A stretch of 64,000 nucleotides of DNA from Methanomassiliicoccales archaeon (GTDB lineage Archaea > Thermoplasmatota > Thermoplasmata > Methanomassiliicoccales > UBA472). Shown piece by piece: positions 22,066 through 60,419 of the stretch. Each line of letters opens with the position of its first letter. Position 1 is the stretch's first letter. The notes under the pieces are model-generated. The model did not search any database. It was not told where the DNA came from and saw nothing but the letters and a program-made list of their open reading frames with translations. The DNA is taken from assembly GCA_026394395.1 (NCBI GenBank), contig JAPKYK010000005.1, forward strand, positions 65,500-129,499, given 5' to 3'. A program made the position numbers and the translations under genes.

Positions 22066-22228
22066 CGAAGCGACCCAGGCCGTAAAAGGGTCACGGATTA
22101 TTTAAGGTCCGCCCAGTCAGCGCCCCCATCGACGAGAGGAGAAGGCAAAACATTACTAAATGGCTTGATGATAGCATCCTCTGCAAGGTGATCTGCTGGA
22201 AGGCTCGCCGCGATCGTACAAGGTACTG

Positions 22229-37616: not shown

Positions 37617-38732
37617 GTGCCTCTCAGTCGGAAGATGACGATTATTGATCCTATGGAAGCAACCAACGTCGTCCGTCTGGCGAGATGGAGCAGTTATGAC
37701 GTTGCACACCTCGAATGCCACCTTTGCCCACATCACTGTTGCTTGAAGGAGGGAGAGATCGGTATTTGCCGCACCCGGGGCGTGCTGAACGGGCGGATGA
37801 CGCTCTTCAATTACGGAAGGGTATGCGTCCAGGCGGTGGACCAGATAGAGAAGAAGCCCATCTACCATTATCGCCCGGGTTCCAAGCTGCTGTCGGTGGG
37901 CACCTTCGGCTGCAACCTCGATTGCGACTGCTGCCAGAACGCCGCTCTGGCCTCGTCCGGAGCCGCAGACGTCGAATGCCCTGAGGTATCCGCGGATGCG
38001 CTGGTCGGCACCGCCCTGGAAAAAGGGGCGCAGGGGATCGCCTTCACCTTCAACGAGCCCCTGGTCTGGTCCGAGTTCGTTATTGACGTTGCGAAATTGT
38101 CGAGAGGGGCCGGGCTGTTCACCATGATGAACAGCAATGGGTTCGTGGAAAGCGAACCGCTGGCCGAACTGGCATCTGCTGTGGACGTCTTCAAGGTCGA
38201 CGTCAAGGGGTTCAGCGAGGGGTTCTACCGACGGCATTGTGGCGGATCGCTGTCCCCGGTGCTGAAGAGCTGTGAGATGATACAAAGGAACGGGAACCAT
38301 CTCGAGATAGCCTATCTGATCATCCCCGGACTGAACGACAGAAAAACGGAGCTGACCGGGTTCTTCGATTGGGCCAGGAACGTCCTGGGGCGCCGGGTGC
38401 CGGTGCACCTATATCGTTTCATGCCCGCGCATCGATTGTCCCATCTGCCTCCGACGGACATGTCGGTCATGAGGTCGGCCAAGGAAATGGCCGAAAGGGC
38501 CGGGCTCGATTTCGTCTATCTTAGTGGGATGGTAGAAGGCGATGAGCACCGGACCCTGTGCCCGAGATGCGGTCACTTGGTGATCGACCGGGCGGCCAAG
38601 GCCGAATCGGAAAAGGTCGTGTGTGACCATGGGCGGGTCAGCAAGTTCTGTCCATCATATTCCGAGATAATCGACCGAACAAAAAGAGGGGCGTGCCCCG
38701 AGTGCGGGGAAATTATTTACCGGACGGAATGA
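37617..38732 (+). CDS. radical SAM enzyme, AmmeMemoRadiSam/PflA-like
   Basis: An N-terminal Cys cluster CHLCPHHCCLKEGEIGIC, the radical-SAM CNLDCDCCQN (Cx3Cx2C), and C-terminal zinc ribbons CPRCG...CPECG. The start may be 37635 or 37653. Confidence 0.8.
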   Translation: MPLSRKMTIIDPMEATNVVRLARWSSYDVAHLECHLCPHHCCLKEGEIGICRTRGVLNGRMTLFNYGRVCVQAVDQIEKKPIYHYRPGSKLLSVGTFGCNLDCDCCQNAALASSGAADVECPEVSADALVGTALEKGAQGIAFTFNEPLVWSEFVIDVAKLSRGAGLFTMMNSNGFVESEPLAELASAVDVFKVDVKGFSEGFYRRHCGGSLSPVLKSCEMIQRNGNHLEIAYLIIPGLNDRKTELTGFFDWARNVLGRRVPVHLYRFMPAHRLSHLPPTDMSVMRSAKEMAERAGLDFVYLSGMVEGDEHRTLCPRCGHLVIDRAAKAESEKVVCDHGRVSKFCPSYSEIIDRTKRGACPECGEIIYRTE

Positions 38733-38780
38733 ATAAAAGCAAAATAAACGGCCTTAACGATAGTGCATGGCCTCCCCCAT

Positions 38781-38797
38781 ATGGATATATAATCCAT
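38781..38797. promoter_or_regulatory. palindromic operator-like site 1: ATGGAT-ATATA-ATCCAT
   Basis: Read directly. The inverted repeat has perfect 6-bp arms and a 5-nt spacer. Its centre at 38789 is 31 bp from the centre of site 2. Confidence 0.6.
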
Positions 38798-38811
38798 CCA
38801 ATGAAACCGGT

Positions 38812-38828
38812 ATGGATATCTCATCCAT
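38812..38828. promoter_or_regulatory. palindromic operator-like site 2: ATGGAT-ATCTC-ATCCAT
   Basis: Read directly. The arms are perfect 6-bp repeats. The centre at 38820 is ~20 bp upstream of a TATA-like TTTATTA (38840-38846) and 76 nt upstream of the corrinoid-protein ATG. Confidence 0.6.
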
Positions 38829-38839
38829 CCATCCAAGGG

Positions 38840-38846
38840 TTTATTA
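38840..38846 (+). promoter_or_regulatory. TATA-like element (TTTATTA) of the corrinoid-protein gene
   Basis: It is an AT-rich heptamer ~50 nt upstream of the ATG at 38896. The strong SD AGGAGG lies at 38881-38886. The position fits an archaeal promoter, but the TSS is unknown. Confidence 0.35.
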
Positions 38847-38895
38847 GTCTAAATTGAAATTTGGAGGCAGCAAACTATTTAGGAGGAAATTAAAA

Positions 38896-39531
38896 ATGGC
38901 AAACATGGATGCATTGATCGAGATTGTTGTCAAGGGGAAGATTAAAGAGGCCAAGGGAGCCACCCAGGCGCTCTTGGACCAAGGAGTGACCGCTAAAGAG
39001 ATCATTTTCAAGGGCTTGAGCGAGGCCATGAAGATCGTCGGTGACAAGTACGAGAAGAAGGAGTACTTCCTGCCGCAGGTTCTTCTGTCCGCTCAGACCC
39101 TGTACCAGGGATTGAACGTGGCCCTGCCTAAGCTCGATGCTACCTCCGCTGCAGCCGCCGGAAAGATAGTCATCTGCGTGGTCGAGGGAGATGTGCACGA
39201 CATCGGTAAGAACATCTGCAAGGCCCTGCTGACCGGCGCCGGCAACACCATGTTCGACCTGGGACGCGACGTGCCCCTGAAGGACATCGTGCAGAAGGCT
39301 AAGGACGAGAGCGCCCAGATCATCGCCACCTCAACCCTCATGACCCCCACCCTGGCGGGCATGAAGGAGATCGAGAAGATGCTTAAGGAAGCCGGCCTGA
39401 AGGGCAAGATAAAGACCATGGTTGGTGGCGGCGCTACCTCCTCGGACTTTGCCAAGAGCATCGGCGCAGACGGATGGGGCTACGACGCCAACGAGGCGGT
39501 CCAAGTCGCCATCAAGCTGCTCGCGAAGTAA
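38896..39531 (+). CDS. methyltransferase cognate corrinoid protein (B12-binding, MtmC/MtbC/MtsB-like size)
   Basis: 211 aa from MANMDALIEIV. It has an N-terminal helical cap, the His-on motif GDVHDIGKN, STLMT and MVGGGA. I reject the 14-aa extension in the ORF track. Confidence 0.9.
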   Translation: MANMDALIEIVVKGKIKEAKGATQALLDQGVTAKEIIFKGLSEAMKIVGDKYEKKEYFLPQVLLSAQTLYQGLNVALPKLDATSAAAAGKIVICVVEGDVHDIGKNICKALLTGAGNTMFDLGRDVPLKDIVQKAKDESAQIIATSTLMTPTLAGMKEIEKMLKEAGLKGKIKTMVGGGATSSDFAKSIGADGWGYDANEAVQVAIKLLAK

Positions 39532-39532
39532 A

Positions 39533-39561
39533 CGGGGCTAACGCCCCCCAATTTTTTTTAT
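39533..39561 (+). terminator. hairpin + oligo-T terminator after the corrinoid gene
   Basis: The hairpin GGGGC-TAAC-GCCCC (39534-39547) is followed by CCAATTTTTTTTATTTT. Confidence 0.55.
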
Positions 39562-39638
39562 TTTATTTTATAATTATTAATATTTAATTATAAAAATAGT
39601 AAGTGCATTTTATTATACCATAAGGTCATCGGTATATC

Positions 39639-40418
39639 ATGACCGGAAACATATCCAACGAGACCGTTTCCATAGAGAACGAGATCGTCCATCTTAAGAA
39701 AAGGGTCGAGGAGATGAGCTTGGAGCTCAGGCACGTTGTTGCTCTATTACAATCCTCTCAAGGTTCCCTTTCGGCCAATAACGAACTATTCGATCTGTTG
39801 CGCGAGGAAGCGCGGGAAAAGGCCCTGACCCGGCTCGACGCCGGCATGGCCAAGCGTTGCGACATGCGTAAGGAGTGCCGGGGGAAGTTCGCCGGTTTCC
39901 TGGACGAGAACCTGGAACTCCTGGACCGCCCCCGGATCTCCGAGGCAGACATACATAATAGGACGGAGGCCTTGGAATCTTTGAAGGAAAATGCGGTACC
40001 CGGGAGATGCGACGGATGCTTCAACGAGGTGGGCGCTCTCTTTCAACAGCAGATGCAGCTCATGCGTGCCCTGAAACTGTACCAGAGCCAAGAGGACGTG
40101 CGTAACAGCATCGACATCCTGCCGGAGGCTGAGGTGGTCAAAGACCTTCTCGAACCATTGTCCAACGTCCAGAGGCTAATAATACTCAAATCCCTGCTCA
40201 AGACACCACGCTCCTTCACGGAGCTATCCTCGCTGACCCATCTTCGCGGAGGTAACTTGTTGTTCCATCTGCAGCGTCTGACAGCCTCGGAGCTGATATC
40301 TCAGAGAAGTGGGCGCGGTGAATACGCCCTCTCGGAAAAGGGGATGAGGGCGTTAGAGATGGTGAACGACCTTTACCAGCGGACCACGACGTCCGGTAAC
40401 GGGACCAAAGGAGAATGA
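39639..40418 (+). CDS. transcriptional regulator: N-terminal coiled-coil/Cys4 domain + C-terminal ArsR-like wHTH
   Basis: The C-terminus is LSNVQRLIILKSLLKTPRSFTELSSLTHLRGGNLLFHLQRLTASELISQRSGRGEYALSEKG. The N-terminal half holds RCDMRKEC (Cx5C) and RCDGC (Cx2C). Confidence 0.6.
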   Translation: MTGNISNETVSIENEIVHLKKRVEEMSLELRHVVALLQSSQGSLSANNELFDLLREEAREKALTRLDAGMAKRCDMRKECRGKFAGFLDENLELLDRPRISEADIHNRTEALESLKENAVPGRCDGCFNEVGALFQQQMQLMRALKLYQSQEDVRNSIDILPEAEVVKDLLEPLSNVQRLIILKSLLKTPRSFTELSSLTHLRGGNLLFHLQRLTASELISQRSGRGEYALSEKGMRALEMVNDLYQRTTTSGNGTKGE

Positions 40419-40531
40419 ACCGACCGTAAGTATGCCCTTCAGAGGCATCCTATCAGAACTGCGACGATGGAAAACCCCGATATTATGGACGAAAGGCCTT
40501 CCAGCCTGCGCAAATTCTATTTATCAGGAAA

Positions 40532-41926
40532 ATGGTCATCATCGGCAATAGGGTGAGGGCGACGAAGGTCTTTTCCAGCCGGGCGATCCTTGGGATGTTG
40601 TTGGGATGGGCCCTGGCCTTCGAAGGGTTCTTCGCCCTTTCTATCGCCAATTCGGCCACCATAGAAGGCATTGGTGGCATCAAAGCCTCGACGTTCTCAT
40701 TGGCCGCCACCCAGCTCGTCTTGTTGGGTGCGTTCATCTCCATCGTCTGGGTTATTAAGGCGGCACTTCCCGAAATCGACAAAAGGATATGGGGAAAGCT
40801 ATTGAGCCTCCTCACCTACCTGGGGATGGCCCTAATAATCCTCGAAGGTTTGATTATCGTATTCAATGCCGGGGATGTGGTAGTAACCAATTTCGGGAAA
40901 GTCTCCAAGATATACATCGTGCTAACTGGGGCGCAGCTATTCGCCTTGGGCGGACTCTCCCTACGGCTGTGGCGGCTGCGAAACGTCCAACCAACCAACT
41001 GGCTGATGGATTCCCTGGGCTCGTTCGTTGCCTCATTGCTCATGGCCGAGGGTTTGATCATTATTGGCATGGCCGCGTACACGAAAATCAAAGGATTGGG
41101 AGGGGTGCTCGAGCAAACGGTCTATAATGCTGGGGTCCAGCTTTTCTTGATCGGTGCGCTCATATTCATTCTTTGGATCATTGTTCAAGACCCATGGTTC
41201 GGTCAGAGGATAAGTAAAATACTAGCCGAAAGGAAGGTTTTCCTTATAGTTGTTGTACTTAGCTGTATTATTGCCATCGAAGGGGTCTTAGCCTCGACAT
41301 GGTCAGGGGATATAACCATCGAGGACGTCGGGGGCATACGCAAGATGTTCATCGTTGCCGGATGTGCCCAGCTCTTTGCATTAGGCGCACTTACACCTCT
41401 TCTGTGGAAGCTCCGATTACGCAAGCTGAATTTGAACTTCTTGCCAGAACTATTCAGTCCATTGGCCATGGTGGTATTGGCTACCGAGGGGGTTGTCGCC
41501 ATGGGACTAGCCGCCAGCACTCGGATCGATGGTATTGGCGGTATCAAGGAGAGCACATTCTTCCTCGCCGGAGAGCAGCTATTGATATTGTCACTAATCG
41601 GCCTATTAGCATTCCTATTGAAGGACAGCTCTATTCTAAGAAAAAGGTCCAGGCGCATAGTGATATCTTTACCGATAATATCCTTAGGCATCGTAGGGTT
41701 AGAGGGGATCGCAGCGACCGTTTTAGCTGCACAAATGTGGATCACGGACTTCAGCAGCGTGAGGGAGCAGTACGTCCTGCTTGTCGGATTACAAATGGCT
41801 ATAATCTCCGTGATAGCCCTGGCATCCTGGGCTCGTTCCGAAGGGATGACCTTTAAGTTCAAGGCCACCGCCACAGGGGCGGCGGCCTTCGTGGTCCTGA
41901 TGCTTCCCATAGCCATTCTGATATGA
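40532..41926 (+). CDS. integral membrane protein built of six tandem 2-TM modules (unrecognised family)
   Basis: 464 aa. A conserved E-G occurs at residues 31, 105, 173, 250, 319 and 391. Each is followed exactly 30 residues later by Q and 42 residues later by W (F in repeat 5). Confidence 0.7.
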   Translation: MVIIGNRVRATKVFSSRAILGMLLGWALAFEGFFALSIANSATIEGIGGIKASTFSLAATQLVLLGAFISIVWVIKAALPEIDKRIWGKLLSLLTYLGMALIILEGLIIVFNAGDVVVTNFGKVSKIYIVLTGAQLFALGGLSLRLWRLRNVQPTNWLMDSLGSFVASLLMAEGLIIIGMAAYTKIKGLGGVLEQTVYNAGVQLFLIGALIFILWIIVQDPWFGQRISKILAERKVFLIVVVLSCIIAIEGVLASTWSGDITIEDVGGIRKMFIVAGCAQLFALGALTPLLWKLRLRKLNLNFLPELFSPLAMVVLATEGVVAMGLAASTRIDGIGGIKESTFFLAGEQLLILSLIGLLAFLLKDSSILRKRSRRIVISLPIISLGIVGLEGIAATVLAAQMWITDFSSVREQYVLLVGLQMAIISVIALASWARSEGMTFKFKATATGAAAFVVLMLPIAILI

Positions 41927-41978
41927 ACAATCAAAGGAAACTTTTATATTCTGTATTTTTTTTCATTGAGCGATAACC

Positions 41979-43955
41979 ATGGCCGAAAGGAAACTTGGGT
42001 TGGGTCTAGACACGGGCGGCACGTACACGGACGCGGCAGTTGTGGACATGTCCACCTTTGAGGTGCTGGCCAAAGCGAAGTCACCCACCACCTACCACGA
42101 CCTGTCCATTGGGGTCCTGGGAGCGATCGACGGCGTCCTGAAATCAGGCAGCTTCGATCCAGCCGACATAATGTTCGTTGGCCTTTCCACAACCTTGGCC
42201 ACGAACTCCATTTTGACTGGTAAGGGGGGCAGGGTCGGTCACATCGCCATCGGGTGGACCCCAATGCAGGAATACAGGTCCGGAGCGGACATGGACGCTT
42301 ACATAAAAGGTGGCCATGGTGTATGGGCCCAGCAGCAGGAACCCCTGGATACCGAGGCGCTCAAGAAGGCCATCACGGAAATGCAACCGAACGTTGATTC
42401 ATTCGTAGTATCAGCCCATTTCAGCGTCTACAATCCCGACCATGAGAAGGAAGCCGCCCGCATGATCAAGGAAATGACCGGGATGCCCGTGGTGATGGGG
42501 CACCAACTAGCCTCCGAGCTGGGTGTGCCGGAAAGGAGCGTGACCGCTATACTGAACGCCCGGCTGCTACCGGTGTTGTCCGAATTCCTGGACGGCGTAG
42601 AGCGTTCCCTACACGAACGTGGAATAACCGCGGCCATACTGGTCTTTAAGGGGGACGGCACCCTGATGAACATCGAAACGGCTAAGGAGCGACCGGTGGA
42701 GACCATACTCTCTGGTCCGGCGGCCAGTCTCATGGGGGGTAAGGTCCTCTGCGACGAGAAGGACTTTATCATGGTGGACATCGGAGGGACGTCCACCGAT
42801 ATCGCCTATCTGGACGACGGTTTCCCCCGCATATCCAAAGAAGGGGCCACCGTGGGCAACTGGCGCACCCGGGTCAAGGCCATCGACATCTGGACCGTGG
42901 GGCTGGGGGGAGATTCGCACGTGATCTCCGACCAGAAGGGAGAGTTCAAGATCGGTCCAGAGAGGGTGGTGCCGTTGGCCATCGCCGCATCCGAATTTCC
43001 AGAAATAAAGGAAAAGATGAAGGCCACCAGTGAGACCAATTACTTCATTCATGTGGAACGGAGCACCGAAAAACTAAGCTCCAAGGAAAAAGAGGTCTAC
43101 GAGTTCGTCAAAACCCATCCGATATGCACCTTGGAGGAGATCAGGGTGGGAGCGCCAGAGGTGTACACGTACCGAGACGTGGTGAAGCGGCTCAAGAACC
43201 GCGGGTTCCTGCAGATGTGTGGGCTGACGCCCACGGACTTTATGCACGTCCAGGGTTTCTTTGACCGTTTCGACATCGAGGCGGCCAGGATGGGCGTGCA
43301 GTTCATGGCCAACTGGGCCAAGATGAACTTCGACGAGTACGTCGAGTCCTTCCACCAAGAAATGATCACCCGGATGGGCGAGGAGATCATGAGGAAGGTC
43401 GTACTGGACGGATCGAGCGAGATGCCCGATTCCCCCGGTTTCAACTACCTTCTGAGAGCGTCGGTCAACGGGAACAGGGGGAGTAACTTGGTGATGAGGA
43501 CCAATATCGGACGTCCTCTGGTAGGCATCGGAGCCCCGGCGCACATCTACATGCCGCCCCTGGAGAAGCGCATGGACGTCAAGGTGATAATACCCAAAGA
43601 ACACGACGTCGGCAACGCCGTGGGAGCGGTCTGCAGCCAGATATCTGAGACCGTTACCGTTCAGGTGTACCCGAACATGGACAACGTCTTCTTCGTGCTC
43701 GGGCCGTTCGGTTCTCCGGTCACCTACAGCCACTTGGAACAGGCCATCAGCAGCGCCCGCTGTCAGGCCGAGGAGTTCGTGAGGAACCGTGTCTACGAGG
43801 CCGGGGCTGAGAACATCCGGGTCCGCAGCGACGTAAACGCGAACAAGTTCTTCGGTGGGGACAACGTGGAAGGGGAGCAGACTGCCTGGGTGGACGTCGT
43901 GGCCCGGGCCACTGGTGACCCCAAGCCCCCGGAAAAGAAGAAGAGCTCACTCTAA
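41979..43955 (+). CDS. hydantoinase/oxoprolinase (HyuA-like) ASKHA-fold ATPase family protein
   Basis: LGLGLDTGGTYTDAAVVD at the N-terminus. The central region PERSVTAILNARLLPV...ETILSGPAASLMGG...IMVDIGGTSTDIAYL...WTVGLGGDS is characteristic of Hydantoinase_A. No HyuB partner is present in the window. Confidence 0.75.
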   Translation: MAERKLGLGLDTGGTYTDAAVVDMSTFEVLAKAKSPTTYHDLSIGVLGAIDGVLKSGSFDPADIMFVGLSTTLATNSILTGKGGRVGHIAIGWTPMQEYRSGADMDAYIKGGHGVWAQQQEPLDTEALKKAITEMQPNVDSFVVSAHFSVYNPDHEKEAARMIKEMTGMPVVMGHQLASELGVPERSVTAILNARLLPVLSEFLDGVERSLHERGITAAILVFKGDGTLMNIETAKERPVETILSGPAASLMGGKVLCDEKDFIMVDIGGTSTDIAYLDDGFPRISKEGATVGNWRTRVKAIDIWTVGLGGDSHVISDQKGEFKIGPERVVPLAIAASEFPEIKEKMKATSETNYFIHVERSTEKLSSKEKEVYEFVKTHPICTLEEIRVGAPEVYTYRDVVKRLKNRGFLQMCGLTPTDFMHVQGFFDRFDIEAARMGVQFMANWAKMNFDEYVESFHQEMITRMGEEIMRKVVLDGSSEMPDSPGFNYLLRASVNGNRGSNLVMRTNIGRPLVGIGAPAHIYMPPLEKRMDVKVIIPKEHDVGNAVGAVCSQISETVTVQVYPNMDNVFFVLGPFGSPVTYSHLEQAISSARCQAEEFVRNRVYEAGAENIRVRSDVNANKFFGGDNVEGEQTAWVDVVARATGDPKPPEKKKSSL

Positions 43956-44155
43956 GGACCGTACTTCGTCGGACCCCAGGCTCAGGGCGCGGGATCGTGC
44001 AATAAGCCCAGCCCCCACCCAAGCGGCGCTTAGAATGCCTGAAGGCACCAGGCAGTTGGCGCGACTATTATTAGTATATTTTAAATACTATATATTATCT
44101 CTAAGAACACATCTGTGAAAGCAAGGGGCTGACGGATACTTTCTTATAATCGTCC

Positions 44156-45250
44156 ATGATATCTGTTTCAATAATAGTTGAAATAGAAGGTGAACTAACG
44201 GCGGACATATTGTTCGTGGCGCTGCAGAGCGGCTTAGACGGTCTTATCGAATACATTTCCCAACATACCTTGACCTGCCTGGTCCCGGCCTTCTTCATCG
44301 CCGGGGCCATTGCTGCGTTCGTCAAGAAAGAGGCTATACTGAAATATTTCGGACCTCAGACCAAGAAATACATCTCCTATCCGATAGCCTCGATCTCCGG
44401 CCTGGTCCTGGCCGTCTGCAGCTGTACAATATTACCGCTCTTCACCGGCATATACAAGAAAGGAAGCGGACTAGGCCCAGCAATAACATTTCTGTTCGCC
44501 GGGCCGGGCATCAACGTGCTGGCGATAATCTATACCGCCCAGGTGCTCGGATACGACATCGGTCTGGCCAGGGCTGTGGCGGCTATCGGGATGTCAGTTA
44601 TAGTCGGCGCCATCATGGCCTGGATATTCAGGAAGGAGCAGCCCAAGGGGGAGCTGAAGATCATCTCCAGTGGTAAGGACAAGCCAAGATGGGTAACTTT
44701 CAGCTTCTTCGTCCTGCTGATACTTATATTAGTGACCGGGGCTTCGCAGCTGGACTGGACCATAAGGCTGGCCGTCGTATACGTGCTGACATTATTGGTC
44801 GCCTACCTGCTCATCTACCACTTCGAAAGGGACGAGGTGACCGATTGGGGAATGGAGACCTGGGACTTGACCAAGAAGATATTTCCCATCCTGCTGATAG
44901 GCACTTTCTTCGTCGGCGTGCTGGCGTACTTCCTGCCCCCGGAGACGTTCCGACCCTATCTCGGAGGCAACTCCGTGCTCGCCAACCTGCTGGCCTCGCT
45001 CCTCGGAGCCATCTTGTACATGCCCACGCTGCTGGAGGTTCCGATCATCGGGACCACCTTCGGTTACACGACTGGGGTCATCGGGGCCGGTCCGGCGCTG
45101 GCGCTCCTGATGTCCGGTCCTACCGTGAGCGCCCCATCCCTATTCGTATTAGGAGGGATCATGGGGTGGAAGAAGACCCTGGCCTATGCTCTGCTGGTGA
45201 TATTAATGTCGACAATGGCCGGCCTAATTTTCGGAGCGCTGGTGGGCTGA
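44156..45250 (+). CDS. COG0701-type permease with vicinal-cysteine CSC motif (ArsP-like family)
   Basis: 364 aa, polytopic, with LAVCSCTILPLF in a TM segment. It is followed by the thioredoxin-like and DGC genes that commonly accompany this permease family. Confidence 0.8.
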   Translation: MISVSIIVEIEGELTADILFVALQSGLDGLIEYISQHTLTCLVPAFFIAGAIAAFVKKEAILKYFGPQTKKYISYPIASISGLVLAVCSCTILPLFTGIYKKGSGLGPAITFLFAGPGINVLAIIYTAQVLGYDIGLARAVAAIGMSVIVGAIMAWIFRKEQPKGELKIISSGKDKPRWVTFSFFVLLILILVTGASQLDWTIRLAVVYVLTLLVAYLLIYHFERDEVTDWGMETWDLTKKIFPILLIGTFFVGVLAYFLPPETFRPYLGGNSVLANLLASLLGAILYMPTLLEVPIIGTTFGYTTGVIGAGPALALLMSGPTVSAPSLFVLGGIMGWKKTLAYALLVILMSTMAGLIFGALVG

Positions 45251-45311
45251 TGTCAGATACAACAATGAAGACCAAACCGTCATCAAGGAATTCGCGTTGG
45301 AGGTGAGATCG

Positions 45312-45545
45312 ATGAAGATAGAAATATTCGGTACGGGTTGCGCCAAATGCAAGAGACTGGAGAAGAACGTGCACGAGGCGGTCGCTACCGCTGGAATCGA
45401 CGCCCAGGTGGTCAAGATCGAGGACATTGACGCCATAATGGAGCAGGGCATCATGGTGACCCCTGCCCTGGCCATCGACGGTGACGTCAAACTGATGGGA
45501 AAGGTCCCATCCGTAGAGGAACTGGTCAGGTTGATCAAGGGGTGA
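45312..45545 (+). CDS. thioredoxin-fold protein (redox-active disulfide protein 2 / MTH895-like)
   Basis: MKIEIFGTGCAKCKRLEKNV...VTPALAIDGDVKLMGKVPSVEEL. The SD GGAGGTGA lies upstream of the ATG at 45312. Confidence 0.8.
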   Translation: MKIEIFGTGCAKCKRLEKNVHEAVATAGIDAQVVKIEDIDAIMEQGIMVTPALAIDGDVKLMGKVPSVEELVRLIKG

Positions 45546-45949
45546 TGGTCTTGGAGAAAGCCAAGTGTTCGTGCGGCGGGACGACCATCGTCTACGCCTG
45601 CGCCGGCGCGGCCAACCTGGGACAGGCCTGCAACGAGATGGCCTTGAGGCTGGTGGAGCAAGGAAGGGCCAGGATGGGATGCCTGGCCGGGGTGGGAGGG
45701 CACGTGCCGAACATGGTCATGTCCGCGCGGAGCGCCGATCAGGTCATCACGTTAGATGGGTGTGCGGTACAATGTGCCAGAAAGGTTCTTGAGCACAATG
45801 ACGTCGTTCCCATGATCCATATCGTAGCTACCGATCTGGGTCTGACCAAGGTCATGGGGCAACGATGGAAGGGAGATGAGGTTAGTGCGATCAGCGAGGC
45901 CTTCGACCGCCTTAAACCCCGAAAAAATGACATAACGCAAATCGAGTGA
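45545..45949 (+). CDS. DGC-domain putative zinc-binding protein
   Basis: CSCGGTTIVYACAGAANLGQ...ITLDGCAVQCARK. The start overlaps the preceding stop (TGATG). Confidence 0.7.
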   Translation: MVLEKAKCSCGGTTIVYACAGAANLGQACNEMALRLVEQGRARMGCLAGVGGHVPNMVMSARSADQVITLDGCAVQCARKVLEHNDVVPMIHIVATDLGLTKVMGQRWKGDEVSAISEAFDRLKPRKNDITQIE

Positions 45950-46145
45950 CCGCTCGTTCTTACACGGGGATCAGTTCAGTTTCTTCCCCATATCCTATTT
46001 TCCGAACTAGACTGTCTACACGCCCAGCTCCGATACCTCGATCCATTTGTATCGATTCGGTCAAACTAAGGCCATGAATGCAGAATTACAATTTCACGAA
46101 TTTAAGAAAAATAAAGAAAAAGGAAAAAAAGGGATTTGAGGGCGT

Positions 46146-47165
46146 TTAGCCCTTTACGGACTTGACCAGTGCGGCCAGATTGTCGTTCGAGATCAGGGCG
46201 GAAAGCCCGCATCCCGGAGAGACCACATCGAAGCCGGCGGCAGCGCAGCGCTTTCCGTGGGCCAGGACGTCCGCAGGGGTTCCCTGCAGCAGCGGGTTGA
46301 CGACACCGACGTTACCGATCAGGGCGGCGCGGTGGTTGACGATCTTGACCGCGTCTTCCGGAACGACCTTCTCCTCGATGGACAGGGCCTTGCATCCGGT
46401 GTTGATCATGTTGTTCAGGATGTCGGTTGTATTGCCGCATATGTGCAGGCAACCAGTGGCTCCCTTGACCGGGGCCAGGCTATCGGCCATGTAAATGCCC
46501 GCGTACTCGTTGAACATGTCCGGGGACAGTAGGTCGGTGCTGGCGGACGGCTCGGACATCTGCACGACATCGGCACCGGCATCGGCCAGGGCTTGGCTGT
46601 ATCCCTTGCAGATGACGTTAGCGGCCTTGACCCAATTGTGCACCAGGGGTGGGTCCACCATGATGTACAGCACGAGGTTCTCGGTGCTGACCAGATGACC
46701 GGCCAAGGTGAACGGTCCGGTGTTACCGGCGATGATCGGGTACTCGTGGCCATACTGGGCCTTCATCTTCTTTACGGCTTCCTGGCAGATGGCGGCGCGG
46801 CCGCTCTTGAGGAACGTGGTAACGTCCATCAGATTGGGCGTGTCCTCCATCTGGTAGGGATGCCCCTTAACCATGGGGGTCCTGTCCTTGCGGCCTGGAT
46901 CCACCTTGGTCACTCCCAAGCTGTCAATCTCAACGGTCAGGCAGAACGGGCACCTGACGGCCTCGAACCCGAAGACCTTGGCCTGTCCGGCACCCAGCTT
47001 GACCATCAGGTCGGCGTTGTAGTGGGCGTCGGGCCAGCTGACACCTAATGCGTCCATCTGTCCCATAGTGGCGCTCTGTGTGAAAACCGCGACCGGCGGC
47101 CTTTCATGCTGCTTGCCCTTCAATGCATCCAGTACTCTCTCCCTTGGAGTTATGTTTTTAGACAA
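46146..47165 (-). CDS. mtaA: methylcobamide:CoM methyltransferase (MtaA/MtbA type, URO-D family)
   Basis: 339 aa. ITPRERVLDALKGKQHERPPV and the Zn-ligand pattern HICGN ... SPGCG. Whether it is the MtaA or MtbA isozyme cannot be told from the sequence by eye. Confidence 0.85.
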   Translation of the reverse strand: MSKNITPRERVLDALKGKQHERPPVAVFTQSATMGQMDALGVSWPDAHYNADLMVKLGAGQAKVFGFEAVRCPFCLTVEIDSLGVTKVDPGRKDRTPMVKGHPYQMEDTPNLMDVTTFLKSGRAAICQEAVKKMKAQYGHEYPIIAGNTGPFTLAGHLVSTENLVLYIMVDPPLVHNWVKAANVICKGYSQALADAGADVVQMSEPSASTDLLSPDMFNEYAGIYMADSLAPVKGATGCLHICGNTTDILNNMINTGCKALSIEEKVVPEDAVKIVNHRAALIGNVGVVNPLLQGTPADVLAHGKRCAAAGFDVVSPGCGLSALISNDNLAALVKSVKG

Positions 47166-47350
47166 ATTTATTCCCCCTATTATCCAGTAGGAATCTAACC
47201 TAGTTTAAGTATCTAGTTTACCGTACATTAAGCTATCGGGGCTTTATGTATTCAAACCATCCTTTAACATTGGTTAATATTTTCCATCTGGCTCGGTGAG
47301 GCCCTATCGAAACAATTGTAAATAATTTAACAAGTGTTCAACCAATCGAC

Positions 47351-48427
47351 TTATACGTTCCCTGACGAACCGTAACGGGCGACGGCCTCCCTAAGAGCAA
47401 TGATGTTCTCCATCGGCGTCTTAAACGGCATCTCGCAGCCCGGTCCTATCATCAGGCCGGGTCCCTTTCCCCAAGAACCGATGATCCCTTGCACTTCCTT
47501 GTCAACCTCCTCCGGCGTCCCCTTGAACAGCAGGAACATGTGGTCTATACCGACCATGACGGCCGTTCTTCCCTTCAATTTGGTGAAGGTCGCCTCGCGG
47601 TCCACCGCCGTTAGATGGAAATGCACGGCGTCCGCGCCTATATCCGGGTATCCGTCGAGGTAAGGAATGGCAGCGCAGTTGTGCGCTATCACCTTCAAAC
47701 CATGGGAATGGAAGCAGTCCACTACCTTCTTCATGTTCTTGAGGTCGAAGCGCTCGATACACTCGAGCGAGCTCATCTCCAGCCCCGAGGTCCCGTTCTC
47801 CATGAAGGCCATCTCTATACCCATCCCTGAAAGGTGCTCGACGTAGGCTTTGGACGATTCCACTAGGACGTTCAGCAGCTGCTCGACCATGCCTGCGTCG
47901 GTGACGGTGGCCATTAGCAGGTTCTCCAACCCCATCACCTCGCTGGCGATGACCATGGGCGAATCGAGGCAACCGAGCACCGCCACCTCGTTTCCCACCC
48001 TTTCGTTCATGAGCCCCGCCGCCCTGAGGGACACGGACCAGAACTCGTCCTTCATGGGGTCCACAGGTTGGATGCGGTCGATGTCCGTCGGTGACTGCAC
48101 CGCGTATCGTTCCACCCGAGGGTAGAAGTCCCGCTCCGGCCACACCCATTGCGTGCCATGGGCCCTGGCCTCCACCAGTATGTCGCCCCAGCCGGCCATG
48201 ACGTTGTCGAAGCCGGTAATCCTCTGGGCCATTATGGCGATGCGAGCGAAGGTCTCAGGGTCGTGAAAGCCCTGGCGCATGGTCAGCCCGGCGGCGTTGA
48301 GCACGGTGCGGGCCGCCCCCAGATGCTGGTACATAATGGGCGGGCGGTCGACCGGTCTCAATGCCAGCGCTTCTTCGAACCTCTCCCTGGGGGTCATGGG
48401 GGGCCTTGATACACTGGAGCCACTCAT
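47351..48427 (-). CDS. divergent URO-D-family (MtaA-like) zinc methyltransferase paralogue
   Basis: 358 aa. MTPRERFEEALALRPVDRPPIMY and H-x-C (IAHNCAA) plus GPGCEMP at the MtaA Zn-ligand positions. Identity to the neighbouring mtaA is low by eye. Confidence 0.75.
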   Translation of the reverse strand: MSGSSVSRPPMTPRERFEEALALRPVDRPPIMYQHLGAARTVLNAAGLTMRQGFHDPETFARIAIMAQRITGFDNVMAGWGDILVEARAHGTQWVWPERDFYPRVERYAVQSPTDIDRIQPVDPMKDEFWSVSLRAAGLMNERVGNEVAVLGCLDSPMVIASEVMGLENLLMATVTDAGMVEQLLNVLVESSKAYVEHLSGMGIEMAFMENGTSGLEMSSLECIERFDLKNMKKVVDCFHSHGLKVIAHNCAAIPYLDGYPDIGADAVHFHLTAVDREATFTKLKGRTAVMVGIDHMFLLFKGTPEEVDKEVQGIIGSWGKGPGLMIGPGCEMPFKTPMENIIALREAVARYGSSGNV

Positions 48428-48442
48428 ATTGTTTTCTGAGCC

Positions 48443-48910
48443 TCAGTCCTTGATCCTCTTTTCCTTCTCGTAGAAGTCGTTGATGATCTCGTAGTCGATC
48501 TTGCGCTCTGACATGAAGATCTTGGTCACGTCCAGTGACGCCGCTCGTACCTGCGGGTCCCACATGCCGTGAACGATGACGTGCACAATCAGCTCACCGC
48601 GGTTCATGAGCGTCCCGTCGAAACGGTTCTGCACCGTCGGGGGTATGTCCAGGTCGATGAGGCTGAAGCTAATGGTGGAGCCTCCTTCGGCAGTAAGGAA
48701 CGATTTGATGTGTCCGATCATGTCCGCTCCTTCCCGGAAGCATTCCATAGTGATTCTATTCAGCAGGTCCAGGACCATGTCCTCGGACTGCTTTCCGTCC
48801 AGCGCGTCAGGGATGTAGAGCCGGAGCCACATGGAGAACTTGCCCAGCTCGTCCGTGGCCCGGTGCGTCAGCAGCTGGCGTTCCTTTTGATCCATTCCTT
48901 CACTCTCCAT
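48443..48910 (-). CDS. hypothetical protein, possibly a detached CobW_C-like domain
   Basis: 155 aa. It overlaps the stop of the upstream COG0523 GTPase gene by 11 nt. The segment IGHIKSFLTAEGGSTISFSL...ELIVHVIVHG loosely resembles the CobW C-terminal domain. The assignment is tentative. Confidence 0.5.
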   Translation of the reverse strand: MESEGMDQKERQLLTHRATDELGKFSMWLRLYIPDALDGKQSEDMVLDLLNRITMECFREGADMIGHIKSFLTAEGGSTISFSLIDLDIPPTVQNRFDGTLMNRGELIVHVIVHGMWDPQVRAASLDVTKIFMSERKIDYEIINDFYEKEKRIKD

Positions 48911-49565
48911 ACTTCTTGTCGAAGCGGTCCTCCGCCTCGGTGAGGTCGTACACCACAGCCTTGCCGTTCACCATGATGTCGGCAACATCCTTCACGCCCT
49001 GCCCGGTTCTTGCAGAACCGTACAGCAGCTTGACCTGGGGGTTCAGGTCCAGGACCAACTTGGTGACCTTGTCCAAGCGCTCGCGGTCCACGGCATCCAC
49101 CTTGTTGATGAGGACGGCGTCCGCCTCTATGATCTGGGTCTCGACCAAGCGGCGCACGTTGTTCATCAGCTTGTCGATGCGTATGGCGTCCACGAAGGTG
49201 ATAATAGGTGCCTGTTCCAGGATCTTGGGCATCTTCTTGACCGTCTCCGCCGCAGCCTGCTTCAGGCCCAGAGGGATGGCCACCCCGGTCGGTTCGACCA
49301 AGATGACGTCCGGCTTGAAGCTCATGTAGATGTTGGTGACTGTGGTGGTCAACGTACCTTGCACCTCACAGCATATGCAGCCGCCGGAGATCTCCATGGT
49401 GTCGATCCCATGGACCTCCATGCACTTGCGGTCGACGTTGATATGGCCGACATCGTTGACGATGGTCGCCACCTTCAAACCCCGCAAATTAAGCTCCTTG
49501 GCCACTTCGATCAGGAAGGTGGTCTTTCCGCTTCCCAAGAAACCGGTAACCTGGGCGATCCTCAT
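48900..49565 (-). CDS. COG0523 (CobW/YjiA-like) G3E-family metallochaperone GTPase, N-domain only
   Basis: P-loop GFLGSGKTT, metal motif GCICC, EPTG and NKVD. At 221 aa it lacks the usual fused C-terminal domain. Confidence 0.8.
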   Translation of the reverse strand: MRIAQVTGFLGSGKTTFLIEVAKELNLRGLKVATIVNDVGHINVDRKCMEVHGIDTMEISGGCICCEVQGTLTTTVTNIYMSFKPDVILVEPTGVAIPLGLKQAAAETVKKMPKILEQAPIITFVDAIRIDKLMNNVRRLVETQIIEADAVLINKVDAVDRERLDKVTKLVLDLNPQVKLLYGSARTGQGVKDVADIMVNGKAVVYDLTEAEDRFDKKYGE

Positions 49566-49722
49566 GTAATCACGCTAGCGGCCTTAACGAACTATAACTA
49601 TAATTCCATTGCCCCTATCCTCGGGCGCCCGAAAAAGACATGCTGGGACGCTTCGGAATTTACCGGTGCTTTGGGAACAGTATTATAAATGAGGCGATGG
49701 CATTCACCCATCGAGGTTTTGC

Positions 49723-51372
49723 ATGGCATTGGGAGTTGCGCTCGACTTGGGCACAAGTGGCTACCGGGGTCACCTGGTCGATCTGAACAAGAAGGGAAAG
49801 ATTCTGGCTACGGCCATCACCATGAGACACCCCCTGCCGGGCGCCAACATCATGGACCATCTGCATTTCTGGATGGAGAACGGGGCCGACGTCGGGCACC
49901 GCATAATCATCGAGACCGTGGACCGATTGATAGGCACCCTGGGCGCCAAGCCCGAGGAGATCGTCCGGGTATCCGTCTGCGGCAACCCCGCCCAGATGTC
50001 CATGTTCGAGAAGATCGAGATACGCGATCTGGCCTACGCCGGCCAGTCCCTGCTCAAGAGGCTGAACGTAAAGGTACCCGAGAGAAAGGCCCACACCATC
50101 AAGGCCGAGGAGCTGGGCATGAGGTCAGTCAGGCAGACCGCCGAGGTCCGCATACCCCCGTCCATCCGTCACGAGATCGGCGCCGACGCCCTGGCCATGA
50201 TCATGAAGACCGGGCTCATGAACAAAAAGGAGACCTGCATGGTCACGGACTACGGCACCAACGCCGAGATGGGACTGTTCTACAAGGGCGAGCTCTTTAC
50301 CGGTTCGGCAGCCGCCGGACCGGCCATGGAAGGGCAGTCCATTGAAATGGGCATGCTGGCCGCTCCCCAGGCATTGTCCGATGTCATCCTGAACGAAGAT
50401 GGCCGCTGGTACAACGTAGTGCTCAACGAAAATCTGCATCCAGTTAAGTCGTCCTTAGTCGATCCGCGCACCGGTCAGGAGCAGCGGCTGGACGGCGTGA
50501 TCGCCCGGGGCATCACCGGCACCGGCACAGTGGCCGCCATGGCCGTGGGGTTGGAGACAGGCATAATCAAGCTGCCCTACATCGACACCCCCGACCGCAA
50601 GATCCACATGACCAATGGCATACACTTCGGCGAAGAGGACGTGCGCGAAGCAGGCAAGGCCATCGGAGCCATCCGCGCCGGGCACCGCACCCTGATCGAA
50701 GAAGTTGGCGTTGCCGACGAAGATGTAAAGACCATGTACATGTGCGGCGCGTCCGGTACGTACGTGGACCCGATAAAGGCTCAGACCGTAGGGCTCATAC
50801 CCAGGGTCCTGGAAAAGACCGTGCAGGCCGGCAACACCTCGCTGATGATGTCCTATGACATACTGGTCGACGATAACGGGCTGGACCACATGCAGGACGT
50901 GGCCAACGCCATATCCAGCAAGCACATAATGTTCGCCACCTGCAAGGTCTTCGAGGACATATACGTCAACGAGATCGCCTACTGGACCGAGGGCATGTCC
51001 ATGGAGATGTACAATGAAATGGTCAAGTACGCTGGATTGAGGCCCCTGCCGGACATAAAGCGCCCCAAAGAGATCGTGCGCTTAGTTTCGTCCGACATAC
51101 CGGTCATCGGCGCCCGCGGTCTGAGGACCCTTGACGACATAGGCGTGTACCTCATCGGCTCCTTCGAGCACTGCGTCGGCTGCAAGAAATGCCAGAAAGA
51201 GTGCCCGGAATGCGCCCTGCAGGTGTCCTCGATGGGTAACAAGAAATTCCAGATCAGGATAAACACCGAGCGCTGCCTGGGAACCGCCTGCAAGAAGTGC
51301 CAGGCCGTCTGTCCGGAGAGCGTGATGAGCTTCGCCGCCCTGAAGATCGTGAAGAAGGGCGAGGACGCATAA
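49723..51372 (+). CDS. ramA: corrinoid protein reductive activase RamA (ASKHA ATPase + C-terminal 2x[4Fe-4S] ferredoxin domain)
   Basis: ALDLGTSGYRGHLVD at the N-terminus. The C-terminal CVGCKKCQKECPECA and CLGTACKKCQAVCPES match the RamA architecture, with ferredoxin motifs at the C-terminus. Confidence 0.85.
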   Translation: MALGVALDLGTSGYRGHLVDLNKKGKILATAITMRHPLPGANIMDHLHFWMENGADVGHRIIIETVDRLIGTLGAKPEEIVRVSVCGNPAQMSMFEKIEIRDLAYAGQSLLKRLNVKVPERKAHTIKAEELGMRSVRQTAEVRIPPSIRHEIGADALAMIMKTGLMNKKETCMVTDYGTNAEMGLFYKGELFTGSAAAGPAMEGQSIEMGMLAAPQALSDVILNEDGRWYNVVLNENLHPVKSSLVDPRTGQEQRLDGVIARGITGTGTVAAMAVGLETGIIKLPYIDTPDRKIHMTNGIHFGEEDVREAGKAIGAIRAGHRTLIEEVGVADEDVKTMYMCGASGTYVDPIKAQTVGLIPRVLEKTVQAGNTSLMMSYDILVDDNGLDHMQDVANAISSKHIMFATCKVFEDIYVNEIAYWTEGMSMEMYNEMVKYAGLRPLPDIKRPKEIVRLVSSDIPVIGARGLRTLDDIGVYLIGSFEHCVGCKKCQKECPECALQVSSMGNKKFQIRINTERCLGTACKKCQAVCPESVMSFAALKIVKKGEDA

Positions 51373-51373
51373 C

Positions 51374-52219
51374 TTGCGCATAACCTGCGTCGTCGACGAC
51401 AACACCGGCGCCCTTGCCGGCGTCCGGAACGTTAAAAAAGCCCCCGGCCGGTTCCTGTCCGAGCACGGCTTATCGTTGCTCATAGAGACGGACGCAAGCA
51501 AGAAGGTCCTCCTGGACGCCGGGTCGTCCGAGACGGTGTTCTCTCATAACCTGGCTGCCTTAGGCCTTACGCCCAAGGACCTGGACCTGGTGTTCATTTC
51601 CCACGGGCACTACGATCATCTGGGGGCGCTGCCCATGCTGCTCCGGACCGGCATCCCCTGCTTCACGGACCCCCGGACCTTCTCCGGGGAAAGGTTCGTT
51701 GAGTCCTCCGGTAAGCGGAAAGAGATCGGCGCATCCCCGGAGCTTCTCGCCCTTCTGGCCGAGCATCCGCCCCAGATGGACAGCGGCCCAAGGGAGCTGT
51801 TGCCGGGGGTCAGCACCACCGGCGAGGTCATGCGCTCCAGCAGCTTCGAGGTTCCCGCCTCCTTCGTGCTGCGCCGCAATGGGAAGGAGGTCCCGGACCT
51901 CATCCTCGAGGAGCAAGCGCTGTGCGTTTCCACGCGCAAAGGCCTGGTGATATTGACCGGCTGCGGCCACGCCGGAGTGGTCAACATCGTGTCCCAGATC
52001 AAGCGCCACAGCGAACGAAAGCTGTACATGGTCATGGGCGGTTTCCATCTGTGGAACGCCTCTCAGGACACCCTGCTCAAGACCATGGACGGCCTGAAGA
52101 GGTTGGGGGTGGAGAAGGTGGCGCCCATGCACTGCTCTGGTTTTGAGGCCACCAAGATGTTCTCCGACCGCTTCCCCGGCTTCGAGCTCATGGGCAGCGG
52201 GTGCTACATGGACATCTAA
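51374..52219 (+). CDS. MBL-fold metallo-hydrolase (COG1237/MJ0301-like)
   Basis: FLSEHGLSLLIE...LLDAGSS...ISHGHYDHLGAL...TGCGHAGVVN...GGFHL. The TTG start lies 1 nt after the ramA stop. Confidence 0.7.
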   Translation: MRITCVVDDNTGALAGVRNVKKAPGRFLSEHGLSLLIETDASKKVLLDAGSSETVFSHNLAALGLTPKDLDLVFISHGHYDHLGALPMLLRTGIPCFTDPRTFSGERFVESSGKRKEIGASPELLALLAEHPPQMDSGPRELLPGVSTTGEVMRSSSFEVPASFVLRRNGKEVPDLILEEQALCVSTRKGLVILTGCGHAGVVNIVSQIKRHSERKLYMVMGGFHLWNASQDTLLKTMDGLKRLGVEKVAPMHCSGFEATKMFSDRFPGFELMGSGCYMDI

Positions 52220-53100
52220 AGGTCTTGGGCGGACTGTTCCAGCATCAGGTCGACGAAGGCGGCCACGGGCATGGTCCGCTTGGCGTATTCCAGCGGTCCG
52301 TATACGACGTAGTCGGCCCCGGCCATCATGCTGACGGCGACGGCCGAGCTGTCCACGTGCCTGCGGGCCTCCTTCGGGTCGGCCATCTCTTCGAGGTCCA
52401 GGCATTCCACAGCGTTGTGCAATGCGCAACCTGTGGGCAGCCCCCACTTGGCCTTAGCTACCATGATCGCGCGCAGGGCCGAACCGGCGCTGAGCTGCGG
52501 TGAGGTCACGGCCATGTCCAGCAGCAGGTTCTTGATGCCCAGTTCTTCGGCCGTGGTCACCAGTCCCTGGGATACGAGCTCGTCCCCGTTCTCGAGCATG
52601 TAGATGCGGCCTTTGACGTCATCCCCCCGGGGGTTGAAGGCCAGCACCACGGCGTTGACCGGGGGCGATCTCCTGAGCGCCTCCATCTCTTCCGACGATA
52701 TACCCGCGTTGATGGTGTTGTAGATGATCCGGTCCAGCACTCCCATCTCCTCGGCGTGCCTAAGGAAGGATAGGCGGACCTCGGCGGTCCCCGAGTCCAC
52801 GAACAACGGTCCAGGGACCTTGTCGCACACCGCCTCGAGGTAGTTGTGCGAAGCCCCCTTGCTCTCGGCATAGAGCATGAGGGCCGAAGGGCAATGGCAG
52901 TTGTCCGTGACCTGCAGATAGCTCTCGAGCCGTTCGTTAAGTTTCGCTTTGTCCAATGAACCCTTTCGGGGGTCGAGCACTACGGTATGACGAGGATAGA
53001 AGAGGGAACCGACCATCATCGTGCGCCTCTTCCCTGGCTGACCGCCGACGCTCACGCCACCTATGCATATCTCCTTCTGAACGGTCTGGAACTTGAACAT
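52216..53100 (-). CDS. mtrH: MtrH-family methyltransferase (methyl-pterin:corrinoid type)
   Basis: 294 aa. MFKFQTVQKEICIGGVSVGGQPGKRRTMMVGSLFY..., NTINAG and LLDMAVT match my recollection of MtrH/MtgA-like proteins. No other mtr membrane subunits are nearby. Confidence 0.8.
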   Translation of the reverse strand: MFKFQTVQKEICIGGVSVGGQPGKRRTMMVGSLFYPRHTVVLDPRKGSLDKAKLNERLESYLQVTDNCHCPSALMLYAESKGASHNYLEAVCDKVPGPLFVDSGTAEVRLSFLRHAEEMGVLDRIIYNTINAGISSEEMEALRRSPPVNAVVLAFNPRGDDVKGRIYMLENGDELVSQGLVTTAEELGIKNLLLDMAVTSPQLSAGSALRAIMVAKAKWGLPTGCALHNAVECLDLEEMADPKEARRHVDSSAVAVSMMAGADYVVYGPLEYAKRTMPVAAFVDLMLEQSAQDL

Positions 53101-53866: not shown

Positions 53867-54030
53867 GACCGCCACTCCAATCACGTATTCAATTTCAATT
53901 ATATATAAAACATCGGAAGGCCAGATGTGACGGCGAATGGGGGTTTTGTCAGACAAAATCCAATTTCGGTGTTAGGGGGATAAGCGATAAATACACCCCG
54001 TTTTGTAATACGGCCCCAGGAAGGGATAAA

Positions 54031-60411: not shown

Positions 60412-60419
60412 CATCAAGC

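Follow-up and report, generated by a model that had tools for sequence, protein, structure and literature searches.

Which function can be assigned to a membrane protein that belongs to no recognized family and is encoded amid methyl-transfer genes of an archaeon? The gene considered here, with a 464-amino-acid (aa) product, lies in a stretch of 64,000 nucleotides (nt) from a Methanomassiliicoccales archaeon (GenBank assembly GCA_026394395.1, contig JAPKYK010000005.1, positions 65,500 to 129,499 of the forward strand), hereafter referred to as the window. Archaea of the order Methanomassiliicoccales produce methane in guts, digesters, and wetlands, and only a small number have been brought into culture. 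An earlier interpretation made from the letters of the window (the sequence-only reading) described the protein as six tandem modules of two transmembrane helices each, with glutamate, glutamine, and tryptophan in exact register, and proposed it as a candidate uptake system for the substrate of the neighboring methyl-transfer genes. We compared the protein with its homologs, with known families and folds, and with the corresponding loci of related genomes.

The longest open reading frame (ORF) at the locus is a real gene for a membrane protein of 13 helices (Table 1), and its product is 100% identical to the NCBI entry "hypothetical protein NT131_07575" from a Methanomassiliicoccales archaeon. 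Long antisense ORFs across the gene (e.g., 41203-41934 on the minus strand) have no support. A script count on the 464-aa translation reproduced all residue positions of the register: an EG dipeptide is found at residues 31, 105, 173, 250, 319, and 391, a glutamine follows each of these glutamates by 30 residues in six of six modules (residues 61, 135, 203, 280, 349, and 421), and a tryptophan follows by 42 residues in five of six, module 5 having F361 at this position. The distances between successive glutamates (74, 68, 77, 69, and 72 aa) agree with the module lengths of 68-77 aa given earlier. Of the four G(I/L/V)GG(I/V) turns that had been counted, three match the strict motif (at 46, 188, and 334), and the fourth loop reads DVGGI (264-268). 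Module profiles, each built from 23 homologs, were compared with hhalign, and every module pair proved to be homologous and in register (probability 97.3-99.6%, E 2e-11 to 6e-25). Since all six profiles match in this manner, the tandem repeat is not a product of chance. The odd modules (1, 3, and 5) are most alike among themselves, and the same holds for the even modules (2, 4, and 6). Because the modules form two such classes, the duplicated unit is, as judged from these profiles, a four-transmembrane double module (here called a tetraspan unit) present in three copies. An additional terminal helix follows the last copy and closes family members of 4, 6, and 8 modules.

AlphaFold2, supplied with the 23-sequence alignment, models the full protein with 13 helices, 12 of which come from the modules (predicted local distance difference test (pLDDT) 80.4, predicted TM-score (pTM) 0.80). 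Together with the hhalign comparison, this upholds the description of a polytopic membrane protein made of homologous modules and adds to it the four-helix unit and the 13th helix. Unit 2 modeled alone gives four helices and two outer beta-hairpins (pLDDT 91, pTM 0.83). Helix ends on the linker side are richer in basic residues than the opposite ends, as had been remarked for the residues after the second helix of each module, with 14 Lys and Arg per 66 loop residues on the linker side versus 8 per 74 on the side of the hairpin loops. This positive-inside bias supports a predicted topology in which the N-terminus and linkers are cytoplasmic and the G-x-G-G loops lie on the outer side. Within each unit, helices a-b and c-d would form two hairpins, whose short loops would make beta-hairpins on the outer face.

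Relatives of the protein carry 2, 4, 6, or 8 modules (approximately 150, 310, 455, and 600 aa), and the number of units across the family is one to four. At locus L022, six modules are split over adjacent genes (6001-6444 and 6665-7594, 220 nt apart), encoding a 147-aa two-module protein without the terminal helix and a 309-aa four-module protein with it, which suggests that units can assemble non-covalently. In one family member from an ENA contig (P0080, 788 aa), three modules are fused to a Thr/Cys-rich domain of about 550 aa with repeated "VTVTNTG"-like motifs, for which no Pfam match was found. P0080 has six helices, so that under the inferred topology this domain, which resembles a surface protein, would be cytoplasmic; the gene may be mis-called, or the topology may differ. 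With the fused domain left cytoplasmic and without a Pfam match, P0080 was dropped as evidence for a surface anchor.

The glutamates, glutamines, and tryptophans of the register are largely kept in homologs. Among the 23 aligned sequences, Glu is retained in modules 1-6 in 22, 22, 23, 16, 22, and 18, Gln in 23, 22, 16, 23, 18, and 23, and Trp in 18-20 per module. The earlier claim of six conserved carboxylates therefore stands for most modules and falls short in module 4 (16/23) and module 6 (18/23). It fails even at the same locus, because 19 of the 32 full-length close orthologs have lost both the Gln of module 3 and the Glu of module 4.

That these two residues disappear together turned out to be informative about the architecture. 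Pairing was analyzed in 204 four-helix units (helices a, b, c, and d) from 92 family proteins aligned to one profile. For Q(b) and E(c), 152 units retain both residues, 45 have lost both, and 7 are discordant (Fisher 9e-37); for E(a) and Q(d), the corresponding numbers are 180, 16, and 8 (Fisher 2e-17). These p-values overstate independence, as the 204 units come from related sequences. In the same units, residues of one hairpin are not associated with each other (E(a)/Q(b), p 0.07; E(c)/Q(d), p 0.13). The double losses arose in several separate lineages and in different units. Mutual information with average product correction (effective number of sequences 147) ranks columns 45-92 and 15-122, which are the two Glu-Gln pairs, first and second, followed by helix contacts a-b, c-d, and a-d and by contacts between the two outer loops. 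At the level of covariation, this establishes that two Glu-Gln pairs, E(a)-Q(d) and Q(b)-E(c), join both hairpins of each unit and that each pair is gained or lost as a whole. Because the pairs covary across hairpins, the unit is predicted to be a closed four-helix bundle. The glutamate and the glutamine 30 residues later, which define the register, are consequently not partners, correlated loss coupling each Glu with the Gln of the other hairpin. Lost pairs have mostly given way to a small residue combined with a hydrophobic one (L/G 11, V/G 4, G/A 4, G/S 4, and G/G 4), a pattern that would fit packing compensation. Exchange of Glu for Gln with the partner Gln kept was observed in five of the 204 units (QQEQ in four, EQQQ in one).

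The depth of these residues separates the Glu-Gln pairs from the tryptophans. Within their helices, Glu lies 6-10 residues and Gln 9 residues inward from the outer end, and all four polar residues of a unit share one membrane depth. Trp is located 1-5 residues from the cytoplasmic helix end, about 12 residues below Gln; it is a typical interfacial Trp outside the Glu-Gln site, and the combined carboxylate and aromatic binding site envisaged in the sequence-only reading does not hold up. In 101 non-redundant units, the outer helix halves and outer loops show 1.3-1.8 bits per column and the inner helix halves and linkers 0.8-1.1 bits, with the exception of the inner half of helix d (1.39 bits), owing to its conserved W and R. 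The conserved surface is thus predicted to face outward, and because conservation is confined to the outer helix halves, no conserved path leads through the membrane in this model.

As the sequence-only reading had stated, the family is not a recognized one. Pfam returned only DUF5392 at E=8.2 (7 bits versus a cut-off of 25), NCBIfam gave no match to the 464-aa protein, and no curated family recurred when 37 units from diverse relatives were scanned singly. A profile of 23 homologs had 0 matches among all PDB sequences at E<=10, and a Foldseek search of the PDB with the full pLDDT-80 model found none at E<=0.001 (TM-scores <=0.25). The known transporter folds (MFS, APC/LeuT, MOP, Mrp-type, and others) show no significant similarity to the protein in either sequence or structure. 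With the single-unit model, the only fold matches that Foldseek gave repeatedly were weak ones to four-transmembrane proteins with extracellular strands, namely TARP/claudin-like proteins, LRRC8, pannexin, and synaptophysin, which are not significant (E>=0.29, TM-scores 0.29-0.54). Neither the Pfam-type profile searches nor the structural comparison thus yielded a confident match to a known family, and in the literature we found nothing describing the membrane gene or its HyuA-like neighbor. The family itself is small: 47 proteins were found in an index of 5.8 billion proteins, and an exhaustive HMMER search found 49 members among 1.84 billion cluster representatives at E<=0.001. All named members are listed as "hypothetical protein" from Methanomassiliicoccales metagenome-assembled genomes (MAGs). 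When genomes were scanned with a closer alignment of 14 sequences, only 10 close relatives came up, each of them in a Methanomassiliicoccales MAG. The 37-unit profile had two matches in the 5.8-billion-protein index, one of them the already known P0079, and revealed no remote link, the hydrophobic word index being swamped. Both the protein family and its fold are new to the databases searched and, so far, restricted to the order Methanomassiliicoccales. This newness applies to family and fold only, and the function could still prove ordinary.

As to function, we tentatively favor a reading that we hold to be quite possible rather than probable, in which the Glu-Gln pairs act mainly as buried polar clamps closing each four-helix bundle. 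The outward conserved surface would be formed by the outer helix halves together with the G-x-G-G loops, and the protein would serve in the membrane as a modular scaffold or docking platform that faces outward and is assembled from one to four units. The volume-compensating replacement of lost pairs, the tolerance of Glu-to-Gln exchange, and the independent loss of pairs all fit such clamps. Several points weigh against this interpretation. Glu stays Glu in about 95% of retained pairs and is rarely Gln or Asp; it is never swapped with its partner Gln and is always followed by Gly. For a simple hydrogen-bond clamp, such selection for a carboxylate is stronger than required, and it would suit a site that binds protons or cations. 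In the odd modules, a line of small or polar residues (S37, T38, A42, and G43) runs from the outer surface to Q45. Most prokaryotic membrane proteins of 12-14 helices are transporters. In three clades that have diverged strongly (69-29% identity), the gene has also kept its position within the corrinoid/MtaA/RamA cluster.

The same carboxylate preference lies at the heart of the main alternative, which we consider rather unlikely, namely that each Glu-Gln pair is a proton or Na+/cation site open to the outside, completed by the backbone of the adjacent Gly and by a Ser/Thr or aromatic residue two turns above. Built of tetraspan units, the protein would then belong to a novel type of channel, ion-coupled transporter, or cation sensor. 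The strong preference for carboxylate over amide at the Glu positions is what such a site would lead one to expect, and the invariant EG, a conserved S/T-x3-A-G-x-Q motif on the outer half of helix b, and the common depth of the four polar residues of a unit point in the same direction. A further argument is the analogy with Na+-binding ATP-synthase c rings, in which E, Q, and S/T lie between hairpins; in c rings, a single chain may hold several hairpins, and some of the sites may be missing. However, the inner helix halves are poorly conserved and offer no conserved exit path, the pairs are dispensable unit by unit, even among orthologs, and lost pairs are replaced in a volume-compensating manner in proteins whose unit number varies from 1 to 4. 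No similarity was found to any transporter fold, and in hhalign comparisons with the unit profile, the c subunit of I. tartaricus and E. coli EmrE (both sequences entered by hand) reached probabilities of 1.1% and 0.2%, respectively.

Whether the gene serves its neighbors is best judged from its promoter and its genomic context. As described earlier, it lies between a regulator and a HyuA-like protein, with corrinoid, two MtaA-family, and RamA genes around it. The gene order of the window recurs in 11 loci with 46-57% identical orthologs. The membrane protein is the fastest-evolving product of this neighborhood, identities in the close loci being 84-94% for the corrinoid protein, 76-80% for HyuA, 85-90% for MtaA, and 87-90% for RamA. 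Locus L003 has a 33%-identical relative placed between the corrinoid and HyuA genes, and loci L021 (P0053, 29%) and L023 (P0058, 28%) have relatives inside the same cluster and no HyuA gene. Elsewhere, a context of DUF1616 or glycan genes recurs (L015, L016, L017, L020, and L022). At L004, L016, and L022, DUF1616 stands directly upstream of the family member, at 106-212 nt, on the same strand and near an Rce1-like gene, and DUF1616 may be a functional partner of the family. In a rough neighbor-joining tree, the clades sited in the methyltransferase cluster are not monophyletic. The association with the cluster is kept in the 11 close loci and in L003, L021, and L023 and broken in other clades, whose members lie beside DUF1616 or glycan genes.

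The membrane gene appears to be monocistronic, with its own putative promoter, because TATA-like boxes stand ahead of it and of the next gene (Table 1). An equivalent of the upstream element (gcgcaa..TATAAT/TATAAAT) is conserved upstream of close orthologs and, judged by eye, not visible in L003. The downstream box and T8 run sit between the stop codon of the membrane gene and the ATG of the HyuA-like gene (41979), and a TATA-like box between membrane gene stop and HyuA start is present in all orthologous loci. The upstream box, also conserved in orthologous loci, stops 8 nt short of the ATG at 40532, and homolog N-termini correspond to residue 11 or 12 of the 464-aa product. Because the box is too near this ATG and the homologs start later, the GTG at 40553 is probably the true start; its use would move residue numbers by 7 and leave the E/Q/W register unaffected. 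The gene lies in the part of the window with the lowest G+C content (40001-42000, 0.515, versus about 0.58-0.63 in most of the window), which fits an Ile/Leu/Phe-rich membrane gene and does not require foreign DNA.

Seen against this context, import of a methylated substrate (a quaternary amine or sulfonium compound) for the adjacent corrinoid methyltransferase through carboxylate and aromatic sites seems improbable to us. It has in its favor the position inside a cluster with a corrinoid gene, two MtaA-like genes, and RamA, in the window as well as in the 11 close loci and three distant loci of two other clades; permease genes within methyltransferase clusters are known in Methanosarcina, e.g., MtpP and MttP, and set a precedent. 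However, the gene looks monocistronic, and at L018 the orthologous cluster has adjacent corrinoid and HyuA genes with no membrane gene between them, while what we infer to be the same genome has a family member with DUF1616 and an Rce1-like gene as neighbors. The conserved backbone also holds genes for OTCase, a DHH phosphoesterase, an RNase H-like protein, and an epimerase, and unrelated genes (DUF308, YdjM, and a BspA-LRR/Fn3 surface protein) occupy the same spot in other lineages. Because housekeeping genes share the backbone and unrelated genes are inserted at this spot, the adjacency is mostly inherited gene order, with a synteny that is vertical rather than functional. In addition, Trp lies at the cytoplasmic interface, far from the level of the Glu-Gln pairs, the six-site array is not conserved, the number of units varies from one to four, and other clades occur in DUF1616 and glycan-gene contexts. 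The case for a dedicated importer of the substrate of the neighboring methyltransferases is weak, and the uptake role proposed for the gene was not borne out by its putative own promoter, its absence from L018, and its other contexts. A long shot, too, is a modular ion- or onium-binding device of a type not seen before, with two outward-accessible Glu-Gln sites per bundle (plus Ser/Thr or aromatic residues) and a variable number of bundles in a row; it would serve as a new class of cation-coupled uptake system, or as a sensor, for the methylated compounds that feed the adjacent two-MtaA-type corrinoid methyltransferase system. Finally, it is very doubtful that the protein is a membrane partner or anchor of the HyuA-like ASKHA ATPase, e.g., one recruiting a factor for corrinoid-protein maintenance, since the 52-nt stop-to-ATG gap, the adjacency in the window, in L003, and in all 10 (of 11) close loci extending past the 3' end of the gene, and the weak signal for MutL (B12-enzyme reactivase-like) in the HyuA-like protein are set against HyuA-like genes without the membrane gene (L018 and L019), the membrane gene without HyuA (L021, L023, and DUF1616-context loci), a separate TATA-like box of HyuA, short and poorly conserved cytoplasmic loops of the membrane protein, and far commoner HyuA-like homologs (7994 versus 47-49 matches).

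The wider neighborhood is listed in Table 1. A conserved cluster, seen in the window (37617-51372) and in L001, L003, L018, L021, and L023, comprises genes for a radical S-adenosylmethionine (SAM) protein, a corrinoid protein, one close and one divergent methyltransferase of the MtaA/URO-D family, a CobW-like GTPase, and RamA, together with a 155-aa protein that matched nothing in Pfam or NCBIfam. Among the genes annotated in and around the cluster, none encodes a substrate methyltransferase of the MtaB or MttB type, and the layout with two URO-D proteins resembles MtsA/MtsB or bacterial O-demethylase systems. The HyuA-like protein, whose C-terminal part of about 330 aa has no domain match, is very widespread in the order, and its gene is often, but not always, inside the corrinoid cluster. 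The regulator has an ArsR-type helix-turn-helix and an N-terminal region of about 170 aa with several Cys (CDMRKEC, CDGC); it is found upstream of the membrane gene in close loci and is absent in L003, L021, and L023. Between the HyuA-like and MtaA-like genes, an insert (44156-45949) encodes an ArsP_1-type permease, an 82-aa thioredoxin-like ORF (CxxC), and a 135-aa Cys-rich ORF. This insert is variable: in related loci it also holds an SBF/ACR3-like gene, and from several loci it is missing entirely. It may be a metal or metalloid resistance cassette and seems uncoupled from the membrane protein. A link to arsenic metabolism through the ArsR-type regulator and ArsP-like permease, an idea prompted by a preprint that reportedly deals with arsenic demethylation by methanogens, was rejected, as L003, L005, L009, and L012 keep the membrane gene without ArsP. 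A link to the order-specific butanetriol tetraether lipids was also considered and dropped, nothing supporting it. Methanomassiliicoccales are usually said to have no Mtr complex; the MtrH and MtrA homologs of the window may be a soluble methyltransferase pair of the MtrAH type. Farther away, the window contains a glycan biosynthesis cluster (13480-24465, with a Polysacc_synt flippase, UDP-glucose dehydrogenase, and GT4 glycosyltransferase) and genes for YcaO and McrB (58413-61859), in keeping with the genome of a methanogen.

Table 1. Features at and around the membrane protein gene; positions are counted from the first letter of the window.
Feature	Position	Strand	Remarks
AmmeMemoRadiSam-type radical SAM protein	37617-38732		
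Corrinoid protein	38854-39531		
ArsR/DUF7347 regulator	39639-40418		
BRE/TATA-like promoter element, gcgcaaattc TATTTAT (BRE, B recognition element)	40508-40524	+	putative; by eye
Repeat membrane protein gene	40532-41926	+	464 aa; stop TGA 41924-41926
Alternative start GTG	40553-40555	+	in-frame, codon 8; probable, from TATA-like box spacing and homolog N-termini
Tetraspan unit 1 (predicted)	40580-40990	+	residues 17-153, modules 1+2; E31, Q61, E105, Q135
Tetraspan unit 2 (predicted)	41006-41425	+	residues 159-298, modules 3+4; E173, Q203, E250, Q280
Tetraspan unit 3 (predicted)	41444-41848	+	residues 305-439, modules 5+6; E319, Q349, E391, Q421
13th transmembrane helix (predicted)	41852-41920	+	residues 441-463; F453 and P459 invariant in 23 homologs
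TATA-like box TTTTATAT (41942-41949) and T8 run (41956-41963)	41942-41963	+	by eye
HyuA-like ASKHA protein	41979-43955		658 aa; Hydant_A_N, Hydantoinase_A, weak MutL signal
ArsP_1-type permease	44156-45250		
MtaA-like gene and divergent MtaA-family gene	46146-47165 and 47351-48427	minus	
RamA	49723-51372		CobW-like GTPase gene listed just before
Metallo-beta-lactamase-fold gene			past RamA, before MtrH and MtrA homologs
MtrH and MtrA homologs	52216-53100 and 53102-53956	minus (both)	also in L018 and L023
DUF1616 gene	55092-56084	minus	13 kb downstream of membrane gene

The family offers a clean case for how buried polar pairs build repeat membrane proteins, and it is a candidate for a cell-surface function in Methanomassiliicoccales. 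The co-evolving Glu-Gln pattern is clean and testable, with no tie so far to an important open question. Should the carboxylates turn out to bind ions or methylated cations, the protein would represent a new architecture for transport or sensing, linked to methylotrophic methanogenesis. Should they be structural, the analysis would chiefly be of value for a corrected annotation and for the warning that the argument from neighboring genes fails here.

Among known systems, the c/K proteolipids of ATP synthases share with the family tandem hairpins with one buried carboxylate each, a variable number of hairpins, Gln and Ser/Thr near the carboxylate, and the ability to lose individual sites. Proteolipid hairpins of this kind are multiplied in some archaea. 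In contrast to these proteins, in which the carboxylate lies mid-membrane on the second helix and the loops are cytoplasmic, the family has its carboxylate on the first helix, in the outer third, its loops point outward, its hairpins close into four-helix bundles rather than a ring, and no ATP-synthase genes are found near the membrane gene. SMR proteins such as EmrE also have a four-helix unit with conserved aromatic residues and, in helix 1, a Glu embedded in the membrane, and they bind quaternary cations, which recalls the substrates suggested in the sequence-only reading; however, EmrE is an antiparallel dimer, whereas the units of the family are parallel and fused, with Glu paired with Gln and Trp at the cytoplasmic interface. 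DUF308/HdeD proteins likewise consist of short repeats of two transmembrane helices, and a DUF308 gene adjoins family members in L021 and L023, but they lack the E/G/Q motifs of the family, the DUF308 protein of L021 reached an hhalign probability of 0.5%, and the Pfam scans of the family gave no match to DUF308. Kinship to DUF308/HdeD, EmrE, and c subunits was rejected on the basis of the hhalign comparisons, and the family falls outside SMR, the c/K proteolipids, DUF308, the known transporter folds, and the curated families. The tetraspan proteins (claudin/TARP-type, tetraspanins, and MARVEL/synaptophysin) differ from it in their claudin or tetraspanin motifs and in a disulfide-bearing large loop, which the family lacks, and the single-unit matches to them are not significant (TARP gamma-8, E=0.29, TM-score 0.42; GARLH4, TM-score 0.48; claudin-15, TM-score 0.33). 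The units of the family are, moreover, concatenated one to four times, closed by an extra helix, and confined to one archaeal order. Common to both are a four-helix up-down bundle as an autonomous unit, short outward beta structure, conserved polar residues of the Glu/Gln type between helices, and a plausible scaffold-like role.

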